The notes under the pieces were generated by a model, which had not been told where the DNA came from, did not search any database, and saw nothing but the letters and a program-made list of their open reading frames with translations. From IMG/VR virus record IMGVR_UViG_2563366978_000009, positions 1 through 39,954 of that record: a DNA stretch of 39,954 bases. The stretch is one strand, 5' to 3'. Source of the DNA: a virus. Taxonomy: Duplodnaviria; Heunggongvirae; Uroviricota; Caudoviricetes. Both the position numbers and the translations under genes were made by a program. Every line of letters begins with the position of its first letter. Position 1 is the stretch's first letter. Positions 3,097-36,049 of this stretch are shown here, piece after piece.

Positions 3097-3453
3097 CGTT
3101 TATATGCATAACTACCTCCTGAACAGTAAAGCATTACGCATGATAAACCATTTATGGTTTTTTGTTACCCAATATTACCAATCCAATTCGCGATGGTCAA
3201 AACATATCCACAGCGGTAAGTTTGAGTGTTTTCATTTCCAAAACTTTATACAATAATATATGCAGTCTGTTATTTTTACGCACAATAAAAACACGATACC
3301 AGCTATTTCGCCATAAATACAATTTCCTTTAATGCTGCCAACAGTGCCTGCAAAACATATAACAGAACACATAAATAACAGGCATAATATAGATTTAATA
3401 ATCTAAGTGCATATAAATATCATTTAAGAAGTTAAGAGCATTATTATAATAAC

Positions 3454-3493: not shown

Positions 3494-6469
3494 TTACATT
3501 GCCATTAATATAAACATAGCCAATTCGTCATAACGAATTCCGTAGCGTCCTCCTGCTTTTTTTACAAGAATCATATCTCCTGTTTTATATTGAGAATAAA
3601 TTTTCTCACCTGTATCAGGATCTGTGCTCTCTTCAGTTATCACCTCTTCATCCCATACGTCAGGCCATTCATCGTAACACCAAAAAGCATATTGCTCCGG
3701 GTTTAAACCATGCTTTCTAAGAATATCCCCTACGGTTTGAGCGCCAACGCCAAAATGATACCTGGACGACTCAATTCCTTTGTGATTAATTGAGTCATTA
3801 AATTTAAATTTATAGATGACTGACTTTATTTCAATAGCGGCATTACGCTCTGCATTAAGAATATCATATCTTGTTTTAAGAGTTTCATCTGACGTATTGA
3901 TTGACCCGGTTCCTGCATAGATAACAGAGCATCTGTTTGATGGCTGTCCAATAGCTTTAACATTATCATCAACAGGAGCTATTTTATTAGCATCTGCCAA
4001 CCACCAGTCTGTTCCATCAGCGTGACCGATTCTTACTCTTATCCCACTTCTAATATTTAAACTTCCAGTATTGCTCTGTAAATTACAATCTCCTGACGTT
4101 GGTCCAAGCAGTACAGTTTTACCAACACCACATACTACTCTGGCATTTCCTTTTTGTGATACGAGTCTTGACTCACCTCCTGACTGCTCAGGAAGAGATT
4201 TATGGTCTATAAATGCATCGCGGGGGTTAAATACACCGTCTCCAGAATTATATCTTCCTCCTGTATAGTTGTTAAATACAGGACCCCAGTCAACGCCATT
4301 GCCTTCAGAGCACCCGACCATTCTAAGCACTCGAGTATTCCCTGCTGCATATGGTAATGAGCTTGTTGATTGCCGGGAAGCTATCATACGTGCTCCATAA
4401 CCAATAGCATTACCACCATTTATAGTTACATATGCTTGCTGGCTTTCGAAATATGTACTGTAAAAGTTCATATTTCCACAGTCATGTAGATGAATAAGAA
4501 CATCATCCCATCCCTGAATGGTTCCTGCATGTACCTGTACACCGCGAACTGGTTCCCCTGAAACCTCCATACACTCTGATGGCCGGCTGAATGGCTGAGA
4601 CAGGTATTGCGATGTGGCAAGCAGATGTGTGTGGTGATACAGGCTGGTAATGTAGCAATCGAAAAATTGCGTTCCCGCCATACCAAAGTTATCTATGTCA
4701 TTTCGCCGTATAGTAGAACCTACTGTTGCCTCAGAAGCGTTAGACACTCCAGTAAATACTAACTTATCACCGGATACGGATAATCCTGAATAAGTGAAAT
4801 TCCTGCCTCCCGATCTTAAAACCCCGGACGTTTCGAAGGTGTGGCTTGATGACCATGGGATTTCGATAGTGCTGGACGTTACCGCTGTAATTCGGAATAC
4901 ATCATGGGCGCGGATCGAAACACCCTTGAATCCCTGGAATCTACAGTGATAATAGTTTTCATCCTCGCCCTGAGCGGCCAGCGTGCCAGATACAGGAATG
5001 TTCGTTTTTAAAAGTGCCGTCTTGCGCCAGTATCCAACCACCTGCAAATTGCGGTATTCATTGCCAAAAGACGCACGTGACCAAATACCTACATCCCACT
5101 CATCGCCAAGACCGGTATTTGCAATGTCTTTATAACCATCCAGCCCATTGAAATATGGAACAATACGAAAGTTCTCAAGGCGAACACATCCTGTCTCTGG
5201 CATCAATATTGCGGCAGAGAATGGTTTAAGCGTGGCTCTTGTAGCCCCATTAGCATCACCGTTAGTAAAATCCAATAAATCATATGATGACGCAGGTGCC
5301 GTTGTTGTATACGGGTCTTCGGAAGATGGATTAGAAACCACACCACCACTAACATCCATATTAGAAACACAATCTACAGTATATTTTTTATTTCCTACAC
5401 CGTACATCAGGAATGTGGTCCCTGTGGTAATATCAGGAGCAAATGTTGCAGTATATCCAGAGACCCATTTGCCCACACCAAGACCAATTATCCCACCACC
5501 AGAAACAGGTGTTAACGTATCCGTTATTACATACGCATTATCAGTACCATAAATAACCTTTCCTGTGTTAATGGCAGCTTGCCACGCGGCCCAGTCTATT
5601 GACTGAGATAATGAGTCAACAAAAGGATATAAGGATTTTGCTTCAGAAATTGAAGAAAACCTCTCAGATAATGGATGATATTTCCCATCCCCAATTGCTC
5701 CGAATTGTTTTACATTTAAGAAAAGAGCATTGTTTTCATGCTGAGTTATAGTTACAGCCCCGGCAAATGGCTGCCTTACACCAATTAATGCATCACCTTT
5801 TCCTTCTCCTGCGCTAGATAATTGCAGAAGAACATCTGCGGCACTGCCAGAAGGCACAGGTACACCTATAGGTTTACCATTGACGATACCAATGACAGTT
5901 TCTTCCAGTAAATGAACTGGAGGAAGTGGTTCAATAAAATTATCTGGAACCCGTAATGTCCTGTTAATATTCACATTAACAATATTATCAACATAATTCT
6001 TTGTAGCTGCATCTTGAGGCTTGGAAGGATCGCGCAAATTGCGGATGTAATTATTCAAAGCATCGTAATAGTTTGCCACAAATGATGGTTTGCGCAGCGC
6101 CAGGCTAAACCAACTGCGGACTTGCTGTATCAGCATCGTCAGCTTATCTAACGCGTCTTCATGCACCTCAGCGAAAAACTTTCCCTGATTTCGCAGATCA
6201 GTTTCCTGCGTAACCGGGAGCTCTCGTGATATAGAAATCTGATAACCGTTAGCTAACGCCTTCGACAGAATTACATTACCGCCATTATATCCACCAGCCC
6301 CAGTGACAGTGTAATCAGTATCAAGAGCCAGCACAGCGATATTTTCGTCAAGGTCAACCACCTGCACTACCAGATCAGATTCCTTGAAAACCCTAAAGGT
6401 ATAAGGAAATGAAGTCGTAACGCCATTGCCTGTGTATTCGTTGTGGTCAACTTCGGTTGAGACCGTCAT
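3494..6469 (-). CDS. Tailspike / tail fibre: T7 gp17-like N-terminal adaptor, central receptor-binding region, C-terminal S74-type intramolecular chaperone
   Basis: 991 aa; GGAG RBS. N-terminus (EYTGNGVTTSFPYTF...LDTDYTV) resembles the T7 tail-fibre N-domain. C-terminal ~150 aa has the SDETLKT block, like the Ser-Lys autocleavage motif of endosialidase-type chaperone domains. Gly/Ser/Thr/Asn-rich middle. Confidence 0.75.
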   Translation of the reverse strand: MTVSTEVDHNEYTGNGVTTSFPYTFRVFKESDLVVQVVDLDENIAVLALDTDYTVTGAGGYNGGNVILSKALANGYQISISRELPVTQETDLRNQGKFFAEVHEDALDKLTMLIQQVRSWFSLALRKPSFVANYYDALNNYIRNLRDPSKPQDAATKNYVDNIVNVNINRTLRVPDNFIEPLPPVHLLEETVIGIVNGKPIGVPVPSGSAADVLLQLSSAGEGKGDALIGVRQPFAGAVTITQHENNALFLNVKQFGAIGDGKYHPLSERFSSISEAKSLYPFVDSLSQSIDWAAWQAAINTGKVIYGTDNAYVITDTLTPVSGGGIIGLGVGKWVSGYTATFAPDITTGTTFLMYGVGNKKYTVDCVSNMDVSGGVVSNPSSEDPYTTTAPASSYDLLDFTNGDANGATRATLKPFSAAILMPETGCVRLENFRIVPYFNGLDGYKDIANTGLGDEWDVGIWSRASFGNEYRNLQVVGYWRKTALLKTNIPVSGTLAAQGEDENYYHCRFQGFKGVSIRAHDVFRITAVTSSTIEIPWSSSHTFETSGVLRSGGRNFTYSGLSVSGDKLVFTGVSNASEATVGSTIRRNDIDNFGMAGTQFFDCYITSLYHHTHLLATSQYLSQPFSRPSECMEVSGEPVRGVQVHAGTIQGWDDVLIHLHDCGNMNFYSTYFESQQAYVTINGGNAIGYGARMIASRQSTSSLPYAAGNTRVLRMVGCSEGNGVDWGPVFNNYTGGRYNSGDGVFNPRDAFIDHKSLPEQSGGESRLVSQKGNARVVCGVGKTVLLGPTSGDCNLQSNTGSLNIRSGIRVRIGHADGTDWWLADANKIAPVDDNVKAIGQPSNRCSVIYAGTGSINTSDETLKTRYDILNAERNAAIEIKSVIYKFKFNDSINHKGIESSRYHFGVGAQTVGDILRKHGLNPEQYAFWCYDEWPDVWDEEVITEESTDPDTGEKIYSQYKTGDMILVKKAGGRYGIRYDELAMFILMAM

Positions 6470-6645: not shown

Positions 6646-6665
6646 ATTGCATGGAGAAGATTAAG

Positions 6666-6923
6666 ATGCAGCAGTATCACTATCCACTGGAAGACGGATT
6701 TACCGAAAGGATTCACACGCCGGGAGGCGTCAGGTCACTGGTGGAGGGATCGCATTTGATGAAATTACTCCGGGATCTCGATAAGGATGGATTTAATGTC
6801 GATGGCCCACTTGCCGAACTGACTGCACTGATTAACTACGTCACCAGCTCACAGATGTCTATGCGGGATCTGCAAACACATCTCGACTATTGTGCCGAAC
6901 AATTACGAAAACAAACCCGGTAA
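6666..6923 (+). CDS. Small antirepressor-like protein, paralog of the C-terminal domain of the AntA-type protein at 8074..8730
   Basis: Start at 6666 with GGAG RBS (ATG at 6651 lacks an RBS and abuts the LexA box). About 40 percent identity by eye to the C-terminal 75 aa of the 8074..8730 product (shared PL, IH.P.GV, LM.LL, DG..V.G..AEL, RD.QTH). Confidence 0.6.
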   Translation: MQQYHYPLEDGFTERIHTPGGVRSLVEGSHLMKLLRDLDKDGFNVDGPLAELTALINYVTSSQMSMRDLQTHLDYCAEQLRKQTR

Positions 6924-6930
6924 ATTTAAA

Positions 6931-6946
6931 GGCCGCAAGAGCGGCC
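6931..6946. terminator. Hairpin between convergent genes
   Basis: GGCCGC AAGA GCGGCC; shared by the + gene ending at 6923 and the - gene ending at 6946. Confidence 0.45.
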
Positions 6947-7674
6947 TATCGTTTCGCTTTGTGCTCATCCCAGCACGTTTTGCACCATGCCATTAAGCCG
7001 TCCGCATTTTGATTATTAGGGTAAAAGCTGGTTCGTTTTCTGCGGACATTACAAATTGGGCACCACTTCATATGGCGTGTATTCTTTGGGCCATCGAGAC
7101 ACCTTGCACACCACTTAGTCAATCCATCTGGATTTTTTGACGATTTCCTGAATTTTTCATATGGAAGGTTTATTCTGCATCGCAAGCACTGCTTGCTACC
7201 ACTTGAAACTCTGTTAGCTGATTCTTCTTTTGGCGGCGATACAGAAGGTATTCTTGCTGGCTCTGATACTGCCTGAGGTGCTTTTTTAGATGACTGAGAC
7301 GATATGTCACCACCAGGGAATCTTCCATGATATGCCGGACGCGTTGACACTCCAGGTGGAAGCTCAGCTGTAAACGGCTTTGACTGAATCAGTTGCCTCT
7401 CTTTTGCTAACTCCTGCTGTTTATAATATGTCTGGATTACCGCACTATCATAAGCAGGAGGTGCGGAAATATTAGGCGCATTACCTCCAGTTTTTTGAAA
7501 CTGAGTAGAGGTGTGTTCTATCACCTGTGTACGATTAATCGTTATCTCCCCATCTTCGGTCTTTATCGTTTTGTTATGATTAACGACCGTACGATCAGAG
7601 ATCTTAGTCTTGTTCTGGTTGATAACGTAAATAATCACCGCAACCACACCAACAACTATCCAGAAAACTTCCAT
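6946..7674 (-). CDS. Membrane-anchored protein with Pro/Ser-rich linker and C-terminal triple zinc-ribbon-like repeats
   Basis: N-terminal TM (MEVFWIVVGVVAVIIYVI); C-terminus has CLRC, DGLTKWCARC, KWCPIC, DGLMAWCKTC. No family recognised. Confidence 0.6.
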   Translation of the reverse strand: MEVFWIVVGVVAVIIYVINQNKTKISDRTVVNHNKTIKTEDGEITINRTQVIEHTSTQFQKTGGNAPNISAPPAYDSAVIQTYYKQQELAKERQLIQSKPFTAELPPGVSTRPAYHGRFPGGDISSQSSKKAPQAVSEPARIPSVSPPKEESANRVSSGSKQCLRCRINLPYEKFRKSSKNPDGLTKWCARCLDGPKNTRHMKWCPICNVRRKRTSFYPNNQNADGLMAWCKTCWDEHKAKR

Positions 7675-7694
7675 TTCTTTTCCTCACAATAACA

Positions 7695-7709
7695 TTACCT
7701 TAAAGGTAA
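7695..7709. promoter_or_regulatory. Operator palindrome TTACC-N5-GGTAA (perfect)
   Basis: TTACCTTAAAGGTAA, followed by a degenerate copy cTTGCTTTCAGGTGA at 7713..7727. Confidence 0.55.
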
Positions 7710-7787
7710 TATCTTGCTTTCAGGTGATCAAGCGTTAAACCCAATAAACCAAATACGGTTGATTTTAATATTTCTTCGCGTTTATAA

Positions 7788-7802
7788 TTACCTTTGCGGT
7801 AA
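7788..7802. promoter_or_regulatory. Operator palindrome TTACC-N5-GGTAA (perfect), overlapping a TATAAT -10
   Basis: TTTATAATTACCTTTGCGGTAA; TATAAT at 7783..7788. Confidence 0.55.
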
Positions 7803-7892
7803 ATTTACATCGCACTCCTCTTGTGCCATAGTAATCGGGCACTGGCAAAATCCAGTGCCGGGATTGGTCTCCCGGATTACTAAGTGGCGCAT

Positions 7893-7915
7893 ACCACGCC
7901 AGACGTGGTTTTTTT
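7893..7915 (+). terminator. Intrinsic terminator or attenuator inside the long leader of the AntA-type gene
   Basis: ACCACG CCAGA CGTGGT followed by seven T, preceded by another 8-bp hairpin at 7837..7860, about 160 nt upstream of the ATG at 8074. Confidence 0.5.
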
Positions 7916-8073
7916 ATGCGTATAGCACAGTCATGCCAGAATTATGGTGGGCTGAATGGGGGTCCGAAAGGACGCCGGTACCACTTAGGCCGGTAAGACC
8001 AACTCCGTTCAGTTCACCACCATCTGATTGGTCTCAGCGGTGGTGATGTAATTCGCTAAGTGGAGACGCCATC

Positions 8074-8730
8074 ATGAACGCTCAACTCATCCCCGTATTC
8101 AACGGCACTATATCTAACGAAACAGCCCTACTTTGTAATGCCCGCGATCTGCACGCTTTTTTAGGTGTTAAAAAGGTGTTTGCAGCATGGATTACAAATC
8201 GCATATCAGAATACGAATTCATTGAAAATCAAGACTATATTTTGCTTTCCAATTTGGGAAAGCAAACATCTGGTAGAGGCGGCCACAACCGCAAAGAGTA
8301 CCACCTCACCCTTGATACAGCCAAAGAGCTGGCGATGGTCGAGCGTAACGAAAAAGGTCGCCAGGTGCGACGCTACTTCATTGAATGCGAGAAACGTTTA
8401 AGACAACAAGAAACAAAAGTGGAGAAGGTCTTGTCAGGCTTCATGCCCGCCATTATGGAGGCGATCAAGCTGGAAGACAAAAAAGAATACAGCGCCCCAC
8501 TGAAGCCCGGCTACCGCAGTCTGATTCATTCTCCGTCTGGTGTTCTCGGCCTGACGGAGAACTCACTGCTGATGAATCTGCTGAACCAGTTACAGGACGA
8601 CGGGCACGACGTATCGGGCGCGGCGGCGGAGCTGACCACCATGTTCTGCTACATCGTCGGTGTGAGCAAATGCCTGCGTGATATCCAGACCCACGCGGAG
8701 TACATCAACGACAAGGCAGGGTTCTTCTGA
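8074..8730 (+). CDS. Antirepressor, AntA-type N-terminal domain
   Basis: 218 aa; N-terminal block LH.FLGV..F..W...R...YEF.E..DY...LT.D.AKELAM.ERNEKG...R.YFIECE as recalled for AntA/AntB; GGAG RBS; C-terminal domain paralogous to 6666..6923. Confidence 0.65.
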
Positions 8731-8801: not shown

Positions 8802-8816
8802 TTACCTCAAGGGTAA
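8802..8816. promoter_or_regulatory. Operator palindrome TTACC-N5-GGTAA (perfect)
   Basis: TTACCTCAAGGGTAA, about 60 nt upstream of the small ORF at 8877. Confidence 0.55.
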
Positions 8817-8876: not shown

Positions 8877-9056
8877 ATGCGAAACGAAAAATTGCAGATG
8901 CGTAGAGCGCAAGCTGCCGCAAGACGTTCTTTCAATGGAAGCGTAGAGTACGTAAAAGTTACTATGACAAAAGATCACGCAAGTCGCGTATCCCGCGCTT
9001 TCTTTGATTCTCGTAACAATAAGGAAAATTATGAGTTCGTCTGCGTCGCAGAATGA
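8877..9056 (+). CDS. Small basic ORF (59 aa) overlapping the YafO-like gene start; candidate antitoxin
   Basis: GAGG RBS 7 nt upstream; below the 60-aa track cutoff; 26-nt overlap with the next gene in another frame. No family recognised. Confidence 0.3.
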   Translation: MRNEKLQMRRAQAAARRSFNGSVEYVKVTMTKDHASRVSRAFFDSRNNKENYEFVCVAE

Positions 9057-9576
9057 TAAAAATCAAATTGTCAGATATAAGGGTCGAGTGTTGCATACGC
9101 AAAATTTCTCGGCCCTTTGTGCATCTGATCTTGAGCTGAAGAAAGTATCTGATGCCTTTACCCAGTATTGGAAAACGGGATACCATCCATCTCTTGGTAA
9201 AGATGCTGCATTTGCTCGTCCGACAGAAATGCTTAAACTAAATGTCAGGCATACTCATGTCGATAACCAAGACTATATTCCAGAAGATAGTGATAAAAAA
9301 CACACTGGTAAAAAATCATCTTGGGATGCATGGAAAAATATAGCGTCTGTACAAGTAAAATGCATACCAACAAGTGATTGCTTTTTAGTTTATTCGGTAA
9401 ATCACAATCGTGATGCGCTGGTTATGTTTTTTGTTGACGCAGATGCTCACAACATAACTGAGCAAGAAGAGTTTAAAGAGGAAGCAATCACTATCAGTTA
9501 TCAATTCTTTGAGAAAACAAAAACAGAACCAATGCCTTTAGAAGAAGATCTTTTTTCTGATAAATGGAAGGAATAG
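9031..9576 (+). CDS. YafO-family toxin-like protein
   Basis: ATG at 9031 with AAGGA RBS (track ORF starts at an upstream TTG). Blocks SDAFTQYWKTG, LGKDAAFA, VRHTHVDNQDYIP, CFLVYSVNHNRDALVMFFVDA parallel YafO as recalled (FISYKRDG, FGRDALY, VAHIHLANENNPFP, AHLVYCQGAFDEQAWLLIAIL). Low GC. Confidence 0.5.
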   Translation: MSSSASQNDKNQIVRYKGRVLHTQNFSALCASDLELKKVSDAFTQYWKTGYHPSLGKDAAFARPTEMLKLNVRHTHVDNQDYIPEDSDKKHTGKKSSWDAWKNIASVQVKCIPTSDCFLVYSVNHNRDALVMFFVDADAHNITEQEEFKEEAITISYQFFEKTKTEPMPLEEDLFSDKWKE

Positions 9577-26477: not shown

Positions 26478-26554
26478 GTGGCATTAGCTCAGTTGGACAG
26501 AGCAACCGCCTTCTAAGCGGTTGGTCGCAGGTTCGAATCCTGCATGCCACGCCA
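26478..26554 (+). tRNA. tRNA-Arg (anticodon UCU), phage-encoded
   Basis: Hand-folded cloverleaf: acceptor GUGGCAU/AUGCCAC, D-arm GCUC-AGUUGGACA-GAGC, anticodon stem ACCGC/GCGGU with loop CUUCUAA, T-arm GCAGG-UUCGAAU-CCUGC, discriminator G, encoded CCA. Confidence 0.9.
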
Positions 26555-33901: not shown

Positions 33902-34713
33902 AAGAAATCCTCCCATGCTTCAGGGCTGTTCCAGTGCGGAACGTTGTTATCAGGTAATGTTGATTGCTTCTGTCTGCTAATCTGCAGCCGCCTTGCCAGC
34001 TTCTGCTCCCACTGTGCCTGATGGTATGCCTTACCCTCAGCCATCCAGTAAATTCTGAACTCTGCAAGTTCCTGTGCCGTTGGCAGACTGTCCAGGTAGA
34101 TCCCCTGCAATGAGCTTTTCCGAAGAAAGTCATCTGATGGCTGCCATTGTTCATGCATGACAAATTTGCCTAATTGCCCTGGCCCACCAGGAGGAACAAA
34201 GTTATTCATCACGGCGTTGTTTGCTCCGGGGTCATGAGGCACAGAATCCCCGCTTTTTGTCCTGCTCTCCCTCTCTTGGTTAAATGACTGGTTATATGAC
34301 TGGTTCTGGATCCCGTTTTTGGGATCATTCAACATCCCGTTTTTGGGATCATTCAACATCCCGTTTTTGGGTATATTCCCGTTTTTGGGTATATTCCCGT
34401 TTTCGGGTTCATTGCCCCCCTCCCGGTTGCCTTTAATGTTCCCGTTTTTGGTTATATTAAGAGAGAAAACCCGCACTCTTTTTGTCGCTCCCTTTCTCTC
34501 TCCGGTATCTGAAATAAGCCCCATTTTCATGAGCGATATAAGCCCGGCCTGCACGGTTTTTTTATTCAGGCAAGTGTCTTTAACGAGGCGTTCTATGCTG
34601 GGGTAGCAGAGGTTATATTCATCGGATCTGTCAGCCATCGAGAGCAGTATGAGCTTTAATGATGAGCTACCTGGATCTGTCTCCCAGGCCCAATCTGTTG
34701 CATGTCTGCTCAT
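33898..34713 (-). CDS. Replication initiator O-like protein with in-gene iterons
   Basis: N-terminal winged-helix-like domain; central NGNIPKNG / MLNDPKNG peptide repeats encoded by DNA iterons; Trp-rich C-terminus. Confidence 0.65.
   Translation of the reverse strand: MSRHATDWAWETDPGSSSLKLILLSMADRSDEYNLCYPSIERLVKDTCLNKKTVQAGLISLMKMGLISDTGERKGATKRVRVFSLNITKNGNIKGNREGGNEPENGNIPKNGNIPKNGMLNDPKNGMLNDPKNGIQNQSYNQSFNQERESRTKSGDSVPHDPGANNAVMNNFVPPGGPGQLGKFVMHEQWQPSDDFLRKSSLQGIYLDSLPTAQELAEFRIYWMAEGKAYHQAQWEQKLARRLQISRQKQSTLPDNNVPHWNSPEAWEDFL
34311..34452. repeat. Iteron array (candidate origin) inside the O-like gene
   Basis: About seven direct repeats of TCCCGTTTTTGG(G/T) with 24- and 18-bp periods, preceded by two ATGACTGGTT repeats. 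Confidence 0.7.
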
Positions 34714-35464: not shown

Positions 35465-36049
35465 ATGAAAAGTATCCAGGACGTCCGCAGGCAAAATCTC
35501 AACGACTTGATCGACCGTGAATTCAATGGTGTTCAGACGCGGATGGCAGAAAAACTTGGAACTCAGGCAAATCTGGTAAACCGCTGGGCTCTTGGCAAGA
35601 AGGTTATCGGCGACCAGGTTGCGCGAAAAATTGAAGCTGCCGCCAATAAACCCCGTAACTGGCTTGATATCGATCGCTCGCTTTCTCAGGAAGGTTTTCA
35701 GCCTGTCGGCCCGAGTGATATAGGTCAGCTGGCTGCTCACAACCTGGAACGCTGGATGAGCGAAAGCCGCGACCTTTCAACGCAGGGAAAACTACACCGC
35801 GCATCCGGCGTCGCCCAGGTGACAATCAGCCGCCTGTTAAACAATGAGGTCAGCGTTTCCATTTCCACCCTGGAGAATGTTGCATCCGCATTTGGGCGTC
35901 ACGGATATGAATTACTGATTCACCCGCACGACCCCGCGACTATCAACTATGACCGCTCGCGCTACGCATTGTTACCTGAAACAGAGAAGGCAAAGATCGA
36001 AAGTTACATTGAATTTGTCATCAACCAGAACGAAAAAAACAAACAATAA
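35465..36049 (+). CDS. Prophage repressor-like protein with two tandem HTH (XRE-type) domains and no S24 peptidase domain
   Basis: 194 aa; HTH-like segments at about aa 20-45 and 120-150; no Ser/Lys autocleavage domain; operators on both sides. Confidence 0.6.
   Translation: MKSIQDVRRQNLNDLIDREFNGVQTRMAEKLGTQANLVNRWALGKKVIGDQVARKIEAAANKPRNWLDIDRSLSQEGFQPVGPSDIGQLAAHNLERWMSESRDLSTQGKLHRASGVAQVTISRLLNNEVSVSISTLENVASAFGRHGYELLIHPHDPATINYDRSRYALLPETEKAKIESYIEFVINQNEKNKQ

Follow-up and report, generated by a model that had tools for sequence, protein, structure and literature searches.

We analysed the leader of the antirepressor gene ant in a 39,954-nt stretch of the IMG/VR virus record IMGVR_UViG_2563366978_000009 (hereafter the window, which means this whole stretch at its full length). 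The window represents an epsilon15/phiV10-like (Uetakevirus) E. coli phage, a podovirus of ~40 kb. The leader contained full-length matches to two RNA families, isrK and C4, and exact copies of two short recognition sites, a and b, the last of which covers the ribosome-binding site of ant. The region 7759–8073 probably serves as the RNA control region for a P1 immI-type antirepressor operon, in which a C4-type antisense RNA would block translation of Ant and a short RNA of the IsrK family would compete for C4. An initial annotation of the leader, made from the letters alone, had described a TATAAT promoter beside an operator, a long leader, a hairpin and a terminator in front of an AntA-type gene, and had proposed attenuation or a short RNA of ~110 nt comparable to the control of ant in P22-type immunity regions. 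It missed the promoter at 7804–7832, the C4 RNA at 7940–8024 and the triple a/b repeats, and the control that the sequence predicts to be the main one, occlusion of the ant ribosome-binding site by C4, was not seen.

IsrK-type and C4-type RNAs in the ant leader

The Rfam covariance models were run over the whole window with the curated cut-offs. RF01394 (isrK, the family name of which refers to binding of Hfq) matched 7839–7915 with 67.7 bits (cut-off 50; model positions 1–77 of 77) and RF01695 (C4) matched 7940–8024 with 61.2 bits (cut-off 45; model positions 1–87 of 87), the E-values of the two leader matches over the whole window being 1.5e-12 and 1.3e-9. At a permissive threshold, RF03163 (c4-a1b1, 'a1, b1 targets of C4') matched 7826–7878 with 39.9 bits, which is under its cut-off of 46.7. 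This match overlaps the first two IsrK hairpins and remained below the cut-off because the isrK model describes the a1-b1 region better. The parts of the leader RNA and the gene that follows are listed below.

7839–7916, plus strand: IsrK-type short RNA with three hairpins (7839–7858, 7859–7874 and the terminator 7893–7909 followed by U7)
7838–7859: hairpin GGCACTGG/CCAGTGCC, 8 bp with a 6-nt loop, equal to IsrK hairpin 1
7864–7870, plus strand: a1, UUGGUCU, loop of IsrK hairpin 2; same sequence as a2, complement of a′
7880–7887, plus strand: b1, CUAAGUGG, linker of IsrK; same sequence as b2, complement of b′
7893–7909, plus strand: intrinsic terminator ACCACG-CCAGA-CGTGGT, with T7 at 7910–7916 (terminator scan)
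7940–8024, plus strand: C4-type antisense RNA with a long closing stem, two inner hairpins and a single-stranded junction
7981–7988, plus strand: b′, CCACUUAG, in the loop of the second inner C4 hairpin; exact complement of b2
7996–8002, plus strand: a′, AGACCAA, in the single-stranded C4 junction; exact complement of a2
8028–8034, plus strand: a2, UUGGUCU, first C4 target site in the ant 5′ untranslated region
8039–8046, plus strand: GGUGGUGA, just after a2; complementary to the 3′ strand of the C4 closing stem, UCACCACC (8014–8021)
8056–8063, plus strand: b2, CUAAGUGG, overlapping the ant Shine-Dalgarno sequence GGAG (8062–8065), 8 nt before the ATG
8074–8730, plus strand: ant, a 218-aa antirepressor with an AntA/AntB N-terminal domain (Pfam PF08346, 91.8 bits)

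The stretch 7839–7916 is best read, from its sequence, as a short terminated small RNA (sRNA) of the IsrK family. The 8-bp hairpin and the canonical terminator with seven T residues were recovered as the initial annotation had described them. In an alignment of 35 diverse homologues, 97.7% of the cells of the terminator stem were paired with many compensatory changes, and none of 500 shuffles reached the observed values. The predicted length of the RNA is ~78 nt from its own promoter and ~122 nt from the upstream TATAAT promoter, so that the short RNA of about 110 nt proposed initially came close. Folding of the leader, which had been suggested as a check, gave z = -2.9 for 7839–7916 against dinucleotide shuffles and z = -5.6 for 7795–7916, the latter including the pairing of a 5′ extension, GUGCCAUAGUAAUC (7822–7835), with the flanks of b1. 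We considered whether this extension, which RNAs started at the upstream promoter would have, masks b1. The extension is kept only in a closely related operator-type subfamily and does not track the b1 type, and its duplex energy was scarcely better within a locus (-13.5) than between loci (-11.4); the idea was dropped.

The C4 region (7940–8024) folded with -41.2 kcal/mol (z = -5.5) and forms the largest structure in the leader; the whole read-through leader (7839–8090) gave z = -4.7. C4 has the acceptor-like closing stem and a 3′ CACCACC, and alignment with the 77-nt P1 c4 suggests that the mature RNA would span ~7946–8021. All three a and all three b copies are exact and lie at the expected structural positions, that is, in a loop, in the junction and at the ribosome-binding site. 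The sequence CTAAGTGG occurs four times in the 40-kb window when both strands are counted, and three of these copies are the a/b recognition sites described here.

The regulated gene is ant, which is annotated as anti-repressor in phage phiv142-3 and in E. coli prophages; its PF08346 domain agrees with the AntA-type gene of the initial annotation. An icd-type small gene was not found between b2 and ant, and the ant ATG (8074) directly follows b2. Since ant lies downstream of the terminator and no promoter-like site lies between them, read-through of the terminator is needed to make C4 and the ant mRNA.

Co-variation of the a and b sites across related loci

A search with the pattern of IsrK hairpins 1 and 2 yielded 120 viral contigs, from which 100 loci with a parseable C4-type hairpin were obtained. 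In every one of these loci a1 was the exact reverse complement of a′, with seven variants of a, and an identical a2 followed a′ by 22–29 nt in 99 of the 100. The a helix was exactly 7 bp long for a1:a′ in all 100 loci and for a2:a′ in 98. The b sites were far more diverse, with 44 distinct b′ loops. The longest Watson-Crick match between b′ and b2 averaged 8.0 within a locus and 4.0 between loci, and the corresponding means for b′ and b1 were 6.6 and 3.7. In 89 of 98 loci, 7–11 nt separated the end of b2 from the start codon. Types of a and b reassort: the window combines a = UCU with b = CCACUUAG, and elsewhere the same b occurs with a = CGU, or the same a with a different b. Beyond the parts and their positions, the comparison shows this co-variation, and with it a conserved module under selection for three-way RNA complementarity.

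The first regulated gene encodes either an Icd-like peptide of 62–81 aa or an antirepressor with a Bro-N, Rha, ORF6N, AntA or P22_AR_C domain. About 29 related loci have a first gene of 50–99 aa, many of them clearly Icd-like. An icd-type gene at this place belongs to P1 and does not characterise the RNA family.

Some contigs contained more than one copy of the pattern. L076 has two IsrK-C4 modules, at 3214–3236 (plus strand) and 6318–6340 (minus strand), one with a = CGU and b = CCACUUAG and one with a = UCU and b = CCUUUGUAG. L081 has two IsrK-pattern matches in tandem, at 5937 and 7149, and a C4 hairpin was parsed downstream of one of them only. Contigs with two modules of different a and b indicate that one phage can hold two independently addressed copies of the switch.

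Three further comparisons did not lead to additional elements. A longer helix for a1:a′ than for a2:a′, which would have made IsrK the better binder, was rejected because the contiguous helix was 7 bp for both in nearly all loci. Co-folding energies of C4 with IsrK or with the target were uninformative because loop-loop contacts lie outside the model. Pairing of GGUGGUGA with the start-codon region, which would bury the ATG, was unsupported, with a value of 4.25 within a locus against 3.9 between loci.

Promoters and operator

Two promoters and two palindromes precede the RNAs.

7747–7760, no strand: palindrome AACCAAATACGGTT, overlapping the -35 element of the upstream promoter
7759–7788, plus strand: upstream promoter TTGATT-18-TATAAT (promoter scan, 10 of 12 consensus positions; predicted start ~7795)
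7788–7802, no strand: operator-like palindrome TTACCTTTGCGGTAA (TTACC-N5-GGTAA), between the upstream -10 and the IsrK -35
7804–7832, plus strand: IsrK promoter TTTACA-17-(TGc)CATAGT (scan, 9 of 12, with an extended -10 TG; predicted start G7839)

The upstream promoter contains the TATAAT noted initially, and the end of its -10 hexamer (7788) is separated by 286 nt from the ant ATG (8074), which agrees with the long leader of that description. Relatives with a different upstream context have a -35/-10 pair at the same position, just 5′ of the operator, and by its position the promoter is the counterpart of P2c4 (P51a) of P1. Six nucleotides separate the end of the IsrK promoter from G7839, with which the IsrK model and hairpin 1 begin. 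Among 98 distinct homologous loci, 84 have a sigma-70-like promoter that ends exactly 6 nt 5′ of hairpin 1, and the predicted start agrees with the 5′ end implied by the numbering in the Gifsy-1 study (Hershko-Shalev et al. 2016, PMC4825925). Judged in the same way, this promoter is the counterpart of P1c4 (P51b). The promoter scan found no further promoter-like site between 7832 and ant, and none on the minus strand within 7803–8073.

TTACC-N5-GGTAA with at most one mismatch occurs at 16 sites in the window, where 0.86 would be expected. This excess supports the word 'operator' in the initial annotation. The palindrome search gave the following sites of 15 nt each.

2949, 6574, 7695, 7788, 8802, 26141, 26758, 29660, 29678, 33002, 33064, 35010, 35347, 35395, 36107, 36169: operator-like sites

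Pairs of the palindrome flank the ORF 35465–36049 (194 aa), a putative repressor gene whose position corresponds to that of the two-HTH repressors of phiV10 (p40) and epsilon15 (gp38). In related loci the half-sites of the operator are kept and the spacer varies. The scattered palindromes resemble a set of operators for the prophage repressor, like the C1 operators of P1, and their distribution suggests that a phage repressor binds them and would limit both promoters via the operator. The palindrome at 7747–7760 is kept as AACCAnATAnGGTT in relatives with unrelated upstream context, whether or not a gene ends there, and may be a second regulatory site.

Proposed mechanism and comparison with P1 and Gifsy-1

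The actions proposed here for C4 and IsrK follow from homology with P1 and Gifsy-1. The downstream one of two tandem sigma-70-type promoters, which flank the operator-like palindrome, would start an IsrK-family RNA at ~7839 that ends at the intrinsic terminator (7893–7916), and transcripts that read through would carry the C4-family RNA (7940–8024) and then the ant mRNA. C4 would be cut out of the read-through transcript as is c4 of P1, the 5′ end of which is made by RNase P. Its a′ and b′ sites would pair with a2 and b2 and block ribosome binding at ant, which would keep Ant off in the lysogen. The short IsrK would mimic the target; by binding a′ and b′, either in C4 or in the leader before processing, it would relieve the block. 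The balance of terminated and read-through transcripts and the occupancy of the operator by the repressor would together set the Ant level and, with it, prophage induction or anti-immunity. The variable a and b sequences would serve as specificity determinants, like those behind the heteroimmunity of P1 and P7.

The curated P1 record has the order C1 operator Oc4 (Op51), P2c4 (P51a), P1c4 (P51b), a1, b1, c4, a2, b2, icd and ant1/ant2, and the Rfam models score 68.8 (C4), 51.0 (c4-a1b1) and 35.1 bits (isrK) on it, with a hairpin and a T-run after b1. The window shares with P1/P7 immI the repressor operator, two tandem promoters, a1, b1, a C4 RNA that is a member of the Rfam family in both (68.8 bits in P1 and 61.2 in the window), a2, b2 over the ribosome-binding site and the antirepressor, with a sites of 7 nt and b sites of 8 nt. 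The N-terminal domain of the window Ant belongs to the Pfam family 'AntA/AntB antirepressor' (PF08346), which is named after the Ant proteins of P1 and P7. The window differs in four respects. P1 has icd, whereas in the window icd is absent and the ribosome-binding site under b2 is that of ant; the a1-b1 element of the window is a strong isrK match with a canonical terminator (67.7 against 35.1 bits); the operator lies between the promoters, whereas the C1 operator of P1 overlaps the -35 of the upstream promoter; and P1 is a plasmid prophage, whereas the window is a 40-kb epsilon15-like podovirus.

In Gifsy-1 of Salmonella (L126), isrK scored 79.3 bits, and a full-length C4 match of 69 bits was found at 34131–34214 on the minus strand, between isrK and anrP, which encodes the antirepressor, with b2 overlapping the anrP Shine-Dalgarno sequence. 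The position and completeness of this match identify the 'orf45'/STnc1160 region (Hershko-Shalev et al. 2016, PMC4825925), by sequence, as a C4 RNA. The published mutations G28A/G31A map to the Gifsy-1 a1 (UUGGCGU, nt 26–32) and C159U/C162U to its a′ (ACGCCAA, nt 158–164), and the first orf45 AUG (A107) is the conserved AAUUAUGG at the C4 5′ end. In that study the isrK promoter drives anrP via read-through of the terminator and the read-through RNA is translationally silent; IsrK supplied in trans lifts anrP translation more than 100-fold, and a1 mutations abolish the activation (PMC4825925). Gifsy-1 and the window have in common a dedicated promoter, an intrinsic terminator with read-through, C4 before the antirepressor gene, b2 over the Shine-Dalgarno sequence of that gene and an isrK match above the cut-off (79.3 and 67.7 bits), and the a1:a′ pairing has been tested by mutation in Gifsy-1. 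The a and b sites are UUGGCGU and AUCACCG in Gifsy-1 but UUGGUCU and CUAAGUGG in the window, and the leader ORF of 45 codons in Gifsy-1 stands against a stop after three codons in the window. Gifsy-1 further differs in having one evident promoter and another N-terminal domain in its antirepressor, and the window is without the antQ or isrJ neighbourhood.

Alternative explanations

Several points weigh against the control by C4 and IsrK as proposed. Repression of P1 ant acts via translation of icd and Rho, whereas here ant follows directly after b2. In the minimum-energy fold of the read-through leader (7839–8090), a1 and b1 are base-paired in cis to a′ and b′ at the expense of the C4 fold, so that C4 may not always form; this modelled fold looks like the silent 'structure A' of the Gifsy-1 study. 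In it the strand UCACCACC pairs with GGUGGUGA, and the C4 closing stem gives way to an alternative hairpin that has a2 in its loop and excludes the C4 fold. This helix covaries across the loci, with a mean of 7.5 contiguous bp and many sequence types; variants such as CCGCCGC/GCGGCGG and GCUACCAC/GUGGUAGC were seen, and it reaches 12 bp in L120. In Gifsy-1, a1 mutations in cis raised basal expression instead of lowering it, and double mutants of a1 and a′ did not restore silencing (PMC4825925). Since a2 was never compensated in that work, which left both a2 and b2 unaltered, the lasting derepression of the a′ mutants fits the prediction of a P1-type mechanism. The authors of the study attribute their data to alternative folding of the read-through RNA and to coupling with a leader ORF (PMC4825925). 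Applied to the window, this would mean a silent read-through fold with a1/b1 paired to a′/b′ in cis, displacement of this pairing by short IsrK in trans, which would free the ribosome-binding site of a small ORF ('orf45') overlapping the C4 region, activation of ant through translational coupling to that ORF, and a C4 that is not a free antisense repressor. The cis pairing in the minimum-energy fold and the covarying alternative hairpin speak for such a mechanism, as does the genetic and gel evidence for such structures in Gifsy-1 (PMC4825925), but we regard it as unlikely here. In the window, a reading frame opened by the conserved AUG at the C4 5′ end (7944) closes after three codons, and the sole longer leader ORF (ATG 7934 to TGA 8046, 37 aa) is without a Shine-Dalgarno sequence and ends 28 nt before ant. 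A conserved leader ORF of the 'orf45' kind was therefore rejected; ORFs across C4 are not conserved in frame, being found in 15, 21 and 57 of 100 loci in the three frames, and b2 overlaps the main gene's Shine-Dalgarno sequence in almost all loci. A 2025 review, citing the Gifsy-1 study, describes the orf45 nucleotide sequence as conserved and its amino-acid sequence as variable, which is a signature of an RNA. Given the early stop after the AUG at 7944 and the unconserved frames, the published coupling to a leader ORF cannot apply here as described. Attenuation in the manner of P4 immunity (CI RNA, seqA/seqC) is a possible though doubtful explanation. P4 resembles the window in that an RNA processed from its own operon leader pairs with complementary sites on either side of itself, one 5′ and one 3′, and CI probably shares an Rfam clan with C4. 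C4 on nascent a1/b1 would block an antiterminator (UGGCG 7885–7889/CGCCA 7897–7901) and favour the IsrK terminator, and it would thereby limit its own synthesis and transcription of ant, possibly alongside the translational block. The candidate helix takes in the final three bases of b1 and, on its other strand, the final two of the terminator 5′ arm, and most loci allow an equivalent helix of 4–6 bp, in which some of the changes are compensatory (AGAGC/GCUCU, UGAGC/GCUCA, GUGAC/GUCAC, UAGUGC/GCACUA). It has 87% of cells paired, and its covariation score was reached by one of 500 shuffles. In Gifsy-1, IsrK in trans raised a transcriptional fusion 8-fold, the authors themselves raise attenuation, and they describe IsrK as a structural homologue of SeqA (PMC4825925). 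On the other hand, the helix is short and mostly GCGC-like, its matches between loci almost equal those within a locus (3.6 and 4.1, respectively), sliding the partner strand two columns either way still left 71–84% paired, and the register varies between loci; constitutive expression of the C4 region did not lower IsrK toxicity in Gifsy-1 (PMC4825925). P4 CI causes premature transcription termination, whereas a comparable antiterminator could not be demonstrated in the window. As for the attenuation proposed in the initial annotation, the terminator before ant and the need for read-through stand, but a classical antiterminator hairpin was not established, the helix being short and GC-repetitive.

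A passive leader that works in cis with no trans-acting RNA, either as an insulating terminator or as a coding stretch (ORF 7714–8046, 110 aa, TTG start; minus-strand ORF 7788–7892), is very improbable. An ORF does span the region, and the terminator lies downstream of the regulatory region of another gene, but the two full-length Rfam matches, the dedicated promoter with its constant spacing to hairpin 1 (84 of 98 loci) and the unconserved reading frames argue against it, and the three-way co-variation of a and b is unneeded for a coding or passive element. The likeness to P22 suggested initially did not hold. The immI region of P22 (sar, arc, mnt, ant) shares with the window the theme of an RNA that limits antirepressor synthesis in a temperate phage. 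Its sar RNA is truly cis-antisense, being transcribed from the other strand beside arc and mnt, whereas the RNA in the window is on the same strand as its target, upstream of it, and has no sequence or structural relationship to sar. We give almost no credence to a sar-like RNA from the opposite strand of the ant leader with repressors of the Arc/Mnt type: the scan for minus-strand promoters in the leader was negative, the isrK and C4 matches are both on the ant strand, the phiV10 ORFs adjoining the homologous leader carry no Arc or Mnt annotation, and copies of the operator palindrome are spread over 16 sites in the genome. The system is homologous to P1/P7 immI (c4) and to the Gifsy-1 isrK region.

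Distribution and relation to earlier work

The leader is identical (100%) to that of Escherichia phage phiv142-3 and ~80–88% identical to those of HEMP4, TL-2011b, phiV10 and others. The records of these phages have no RNA annotation at the leader, the phiV10 record giving just 'terminator'. Among 5,426 complete E. coli genomes, the leader was found in 467, where Ant is the sole annotation. A similar arrangement has been annotated in the APSE phages of Hamiltonella, in which isrK and C4 are adjacent and upstream of an antirepressor-type gene with a Bro-N domain (Rouil et al. 2020, PMC7313666). The a′ and b′ sites there match the region upstream of the Bro-N gene; identity over the RNA region is ~72%, and the regulated protein and the host differ. 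The APSE paper takes IsrK as a separate sRNA linked to virulence (PMC7313666), the 2025 review lists IsrK and c4 as separate systems, and in the literature searched we found no paper that equates IsrK with the a1-b1 element.

The system is already known in kind: each RNA belongs to a curated family, the parts are arranged as in P1 immI, and E. coli prophages commonly carry the sequence. What is added here is the explicit link between IsrK and the a1-b1 element and between 'orf45' and C4, together with the breadth of the three-site specificity code. An evenly balanced judgement is warranted for the wider proposal that IsrK and C4 are the two halves of one widespread module. IsrK would be the a1-b1 element of P1 immI plus a terminator and would act as a target mimic (an anti-antisense RNA) for C4, 'orf45'/STnc1160 would be C4, a three-site code with at least seven a types and 44 b types that reassort freely would precede many different antirepressor genes, and C4 bound to nascent a1/b1 might set termination. 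The added link and code are of moderate interest to specialists in phage RNA and are unsurprising. The module would decide whether a prophage makes antirepressor, and would thereby affect its induction and the immunity that related phages have to one another. Recognition of both RNAs improves the annotation of epsilon15/phiV10-like phages and joins three bodies of work that usually stand apart, namely P1 c4, Salmonella IsrK and the sRNAs of APSE. The covarying a and b sites provide natural compensatory mutants for study of the switch.

Neighbouring features

Relative to phiV10 and phiv142-3, a segment (6930–7781) is inserted between a p19-like gene and the ant leader, and homology with phiv142-3 picks up again at 7782. 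The insertion is common to other viral contigs. It contains a 242-aa ORF on the minus strand (6946–7674), the product of which has a hydrophobic N-terminal stretch, a Cys-rich C-terminus and a weak Stc1 match, as well as its own terminator (6930–6947) and an extra copy of the operator at 7695. Just upstream of the ant control region, the 90-aa ORF at 6651–6923 (plus strand) is similar to epsilon15 p19 and shares 43% identity over 83 aa with the C-terminal half of Ant (E = 9e-18); its product is a stand-alone Ant C-terminal domain. Downstream of ant, the 190-aa ORF at 9004–9576 (plus strand) has a weak match to the YafO toxin (26.1 bits; cut-off 25) and is preceded by the copy of the operator palindrome at 8802. 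Outside the leader, tRNA-Arg was the only Rfam match above the cut-off in the whole window; this tRNA (anticodon TCT, 26478–26554, plus strand) was found by both Rfam and ARAGORN.

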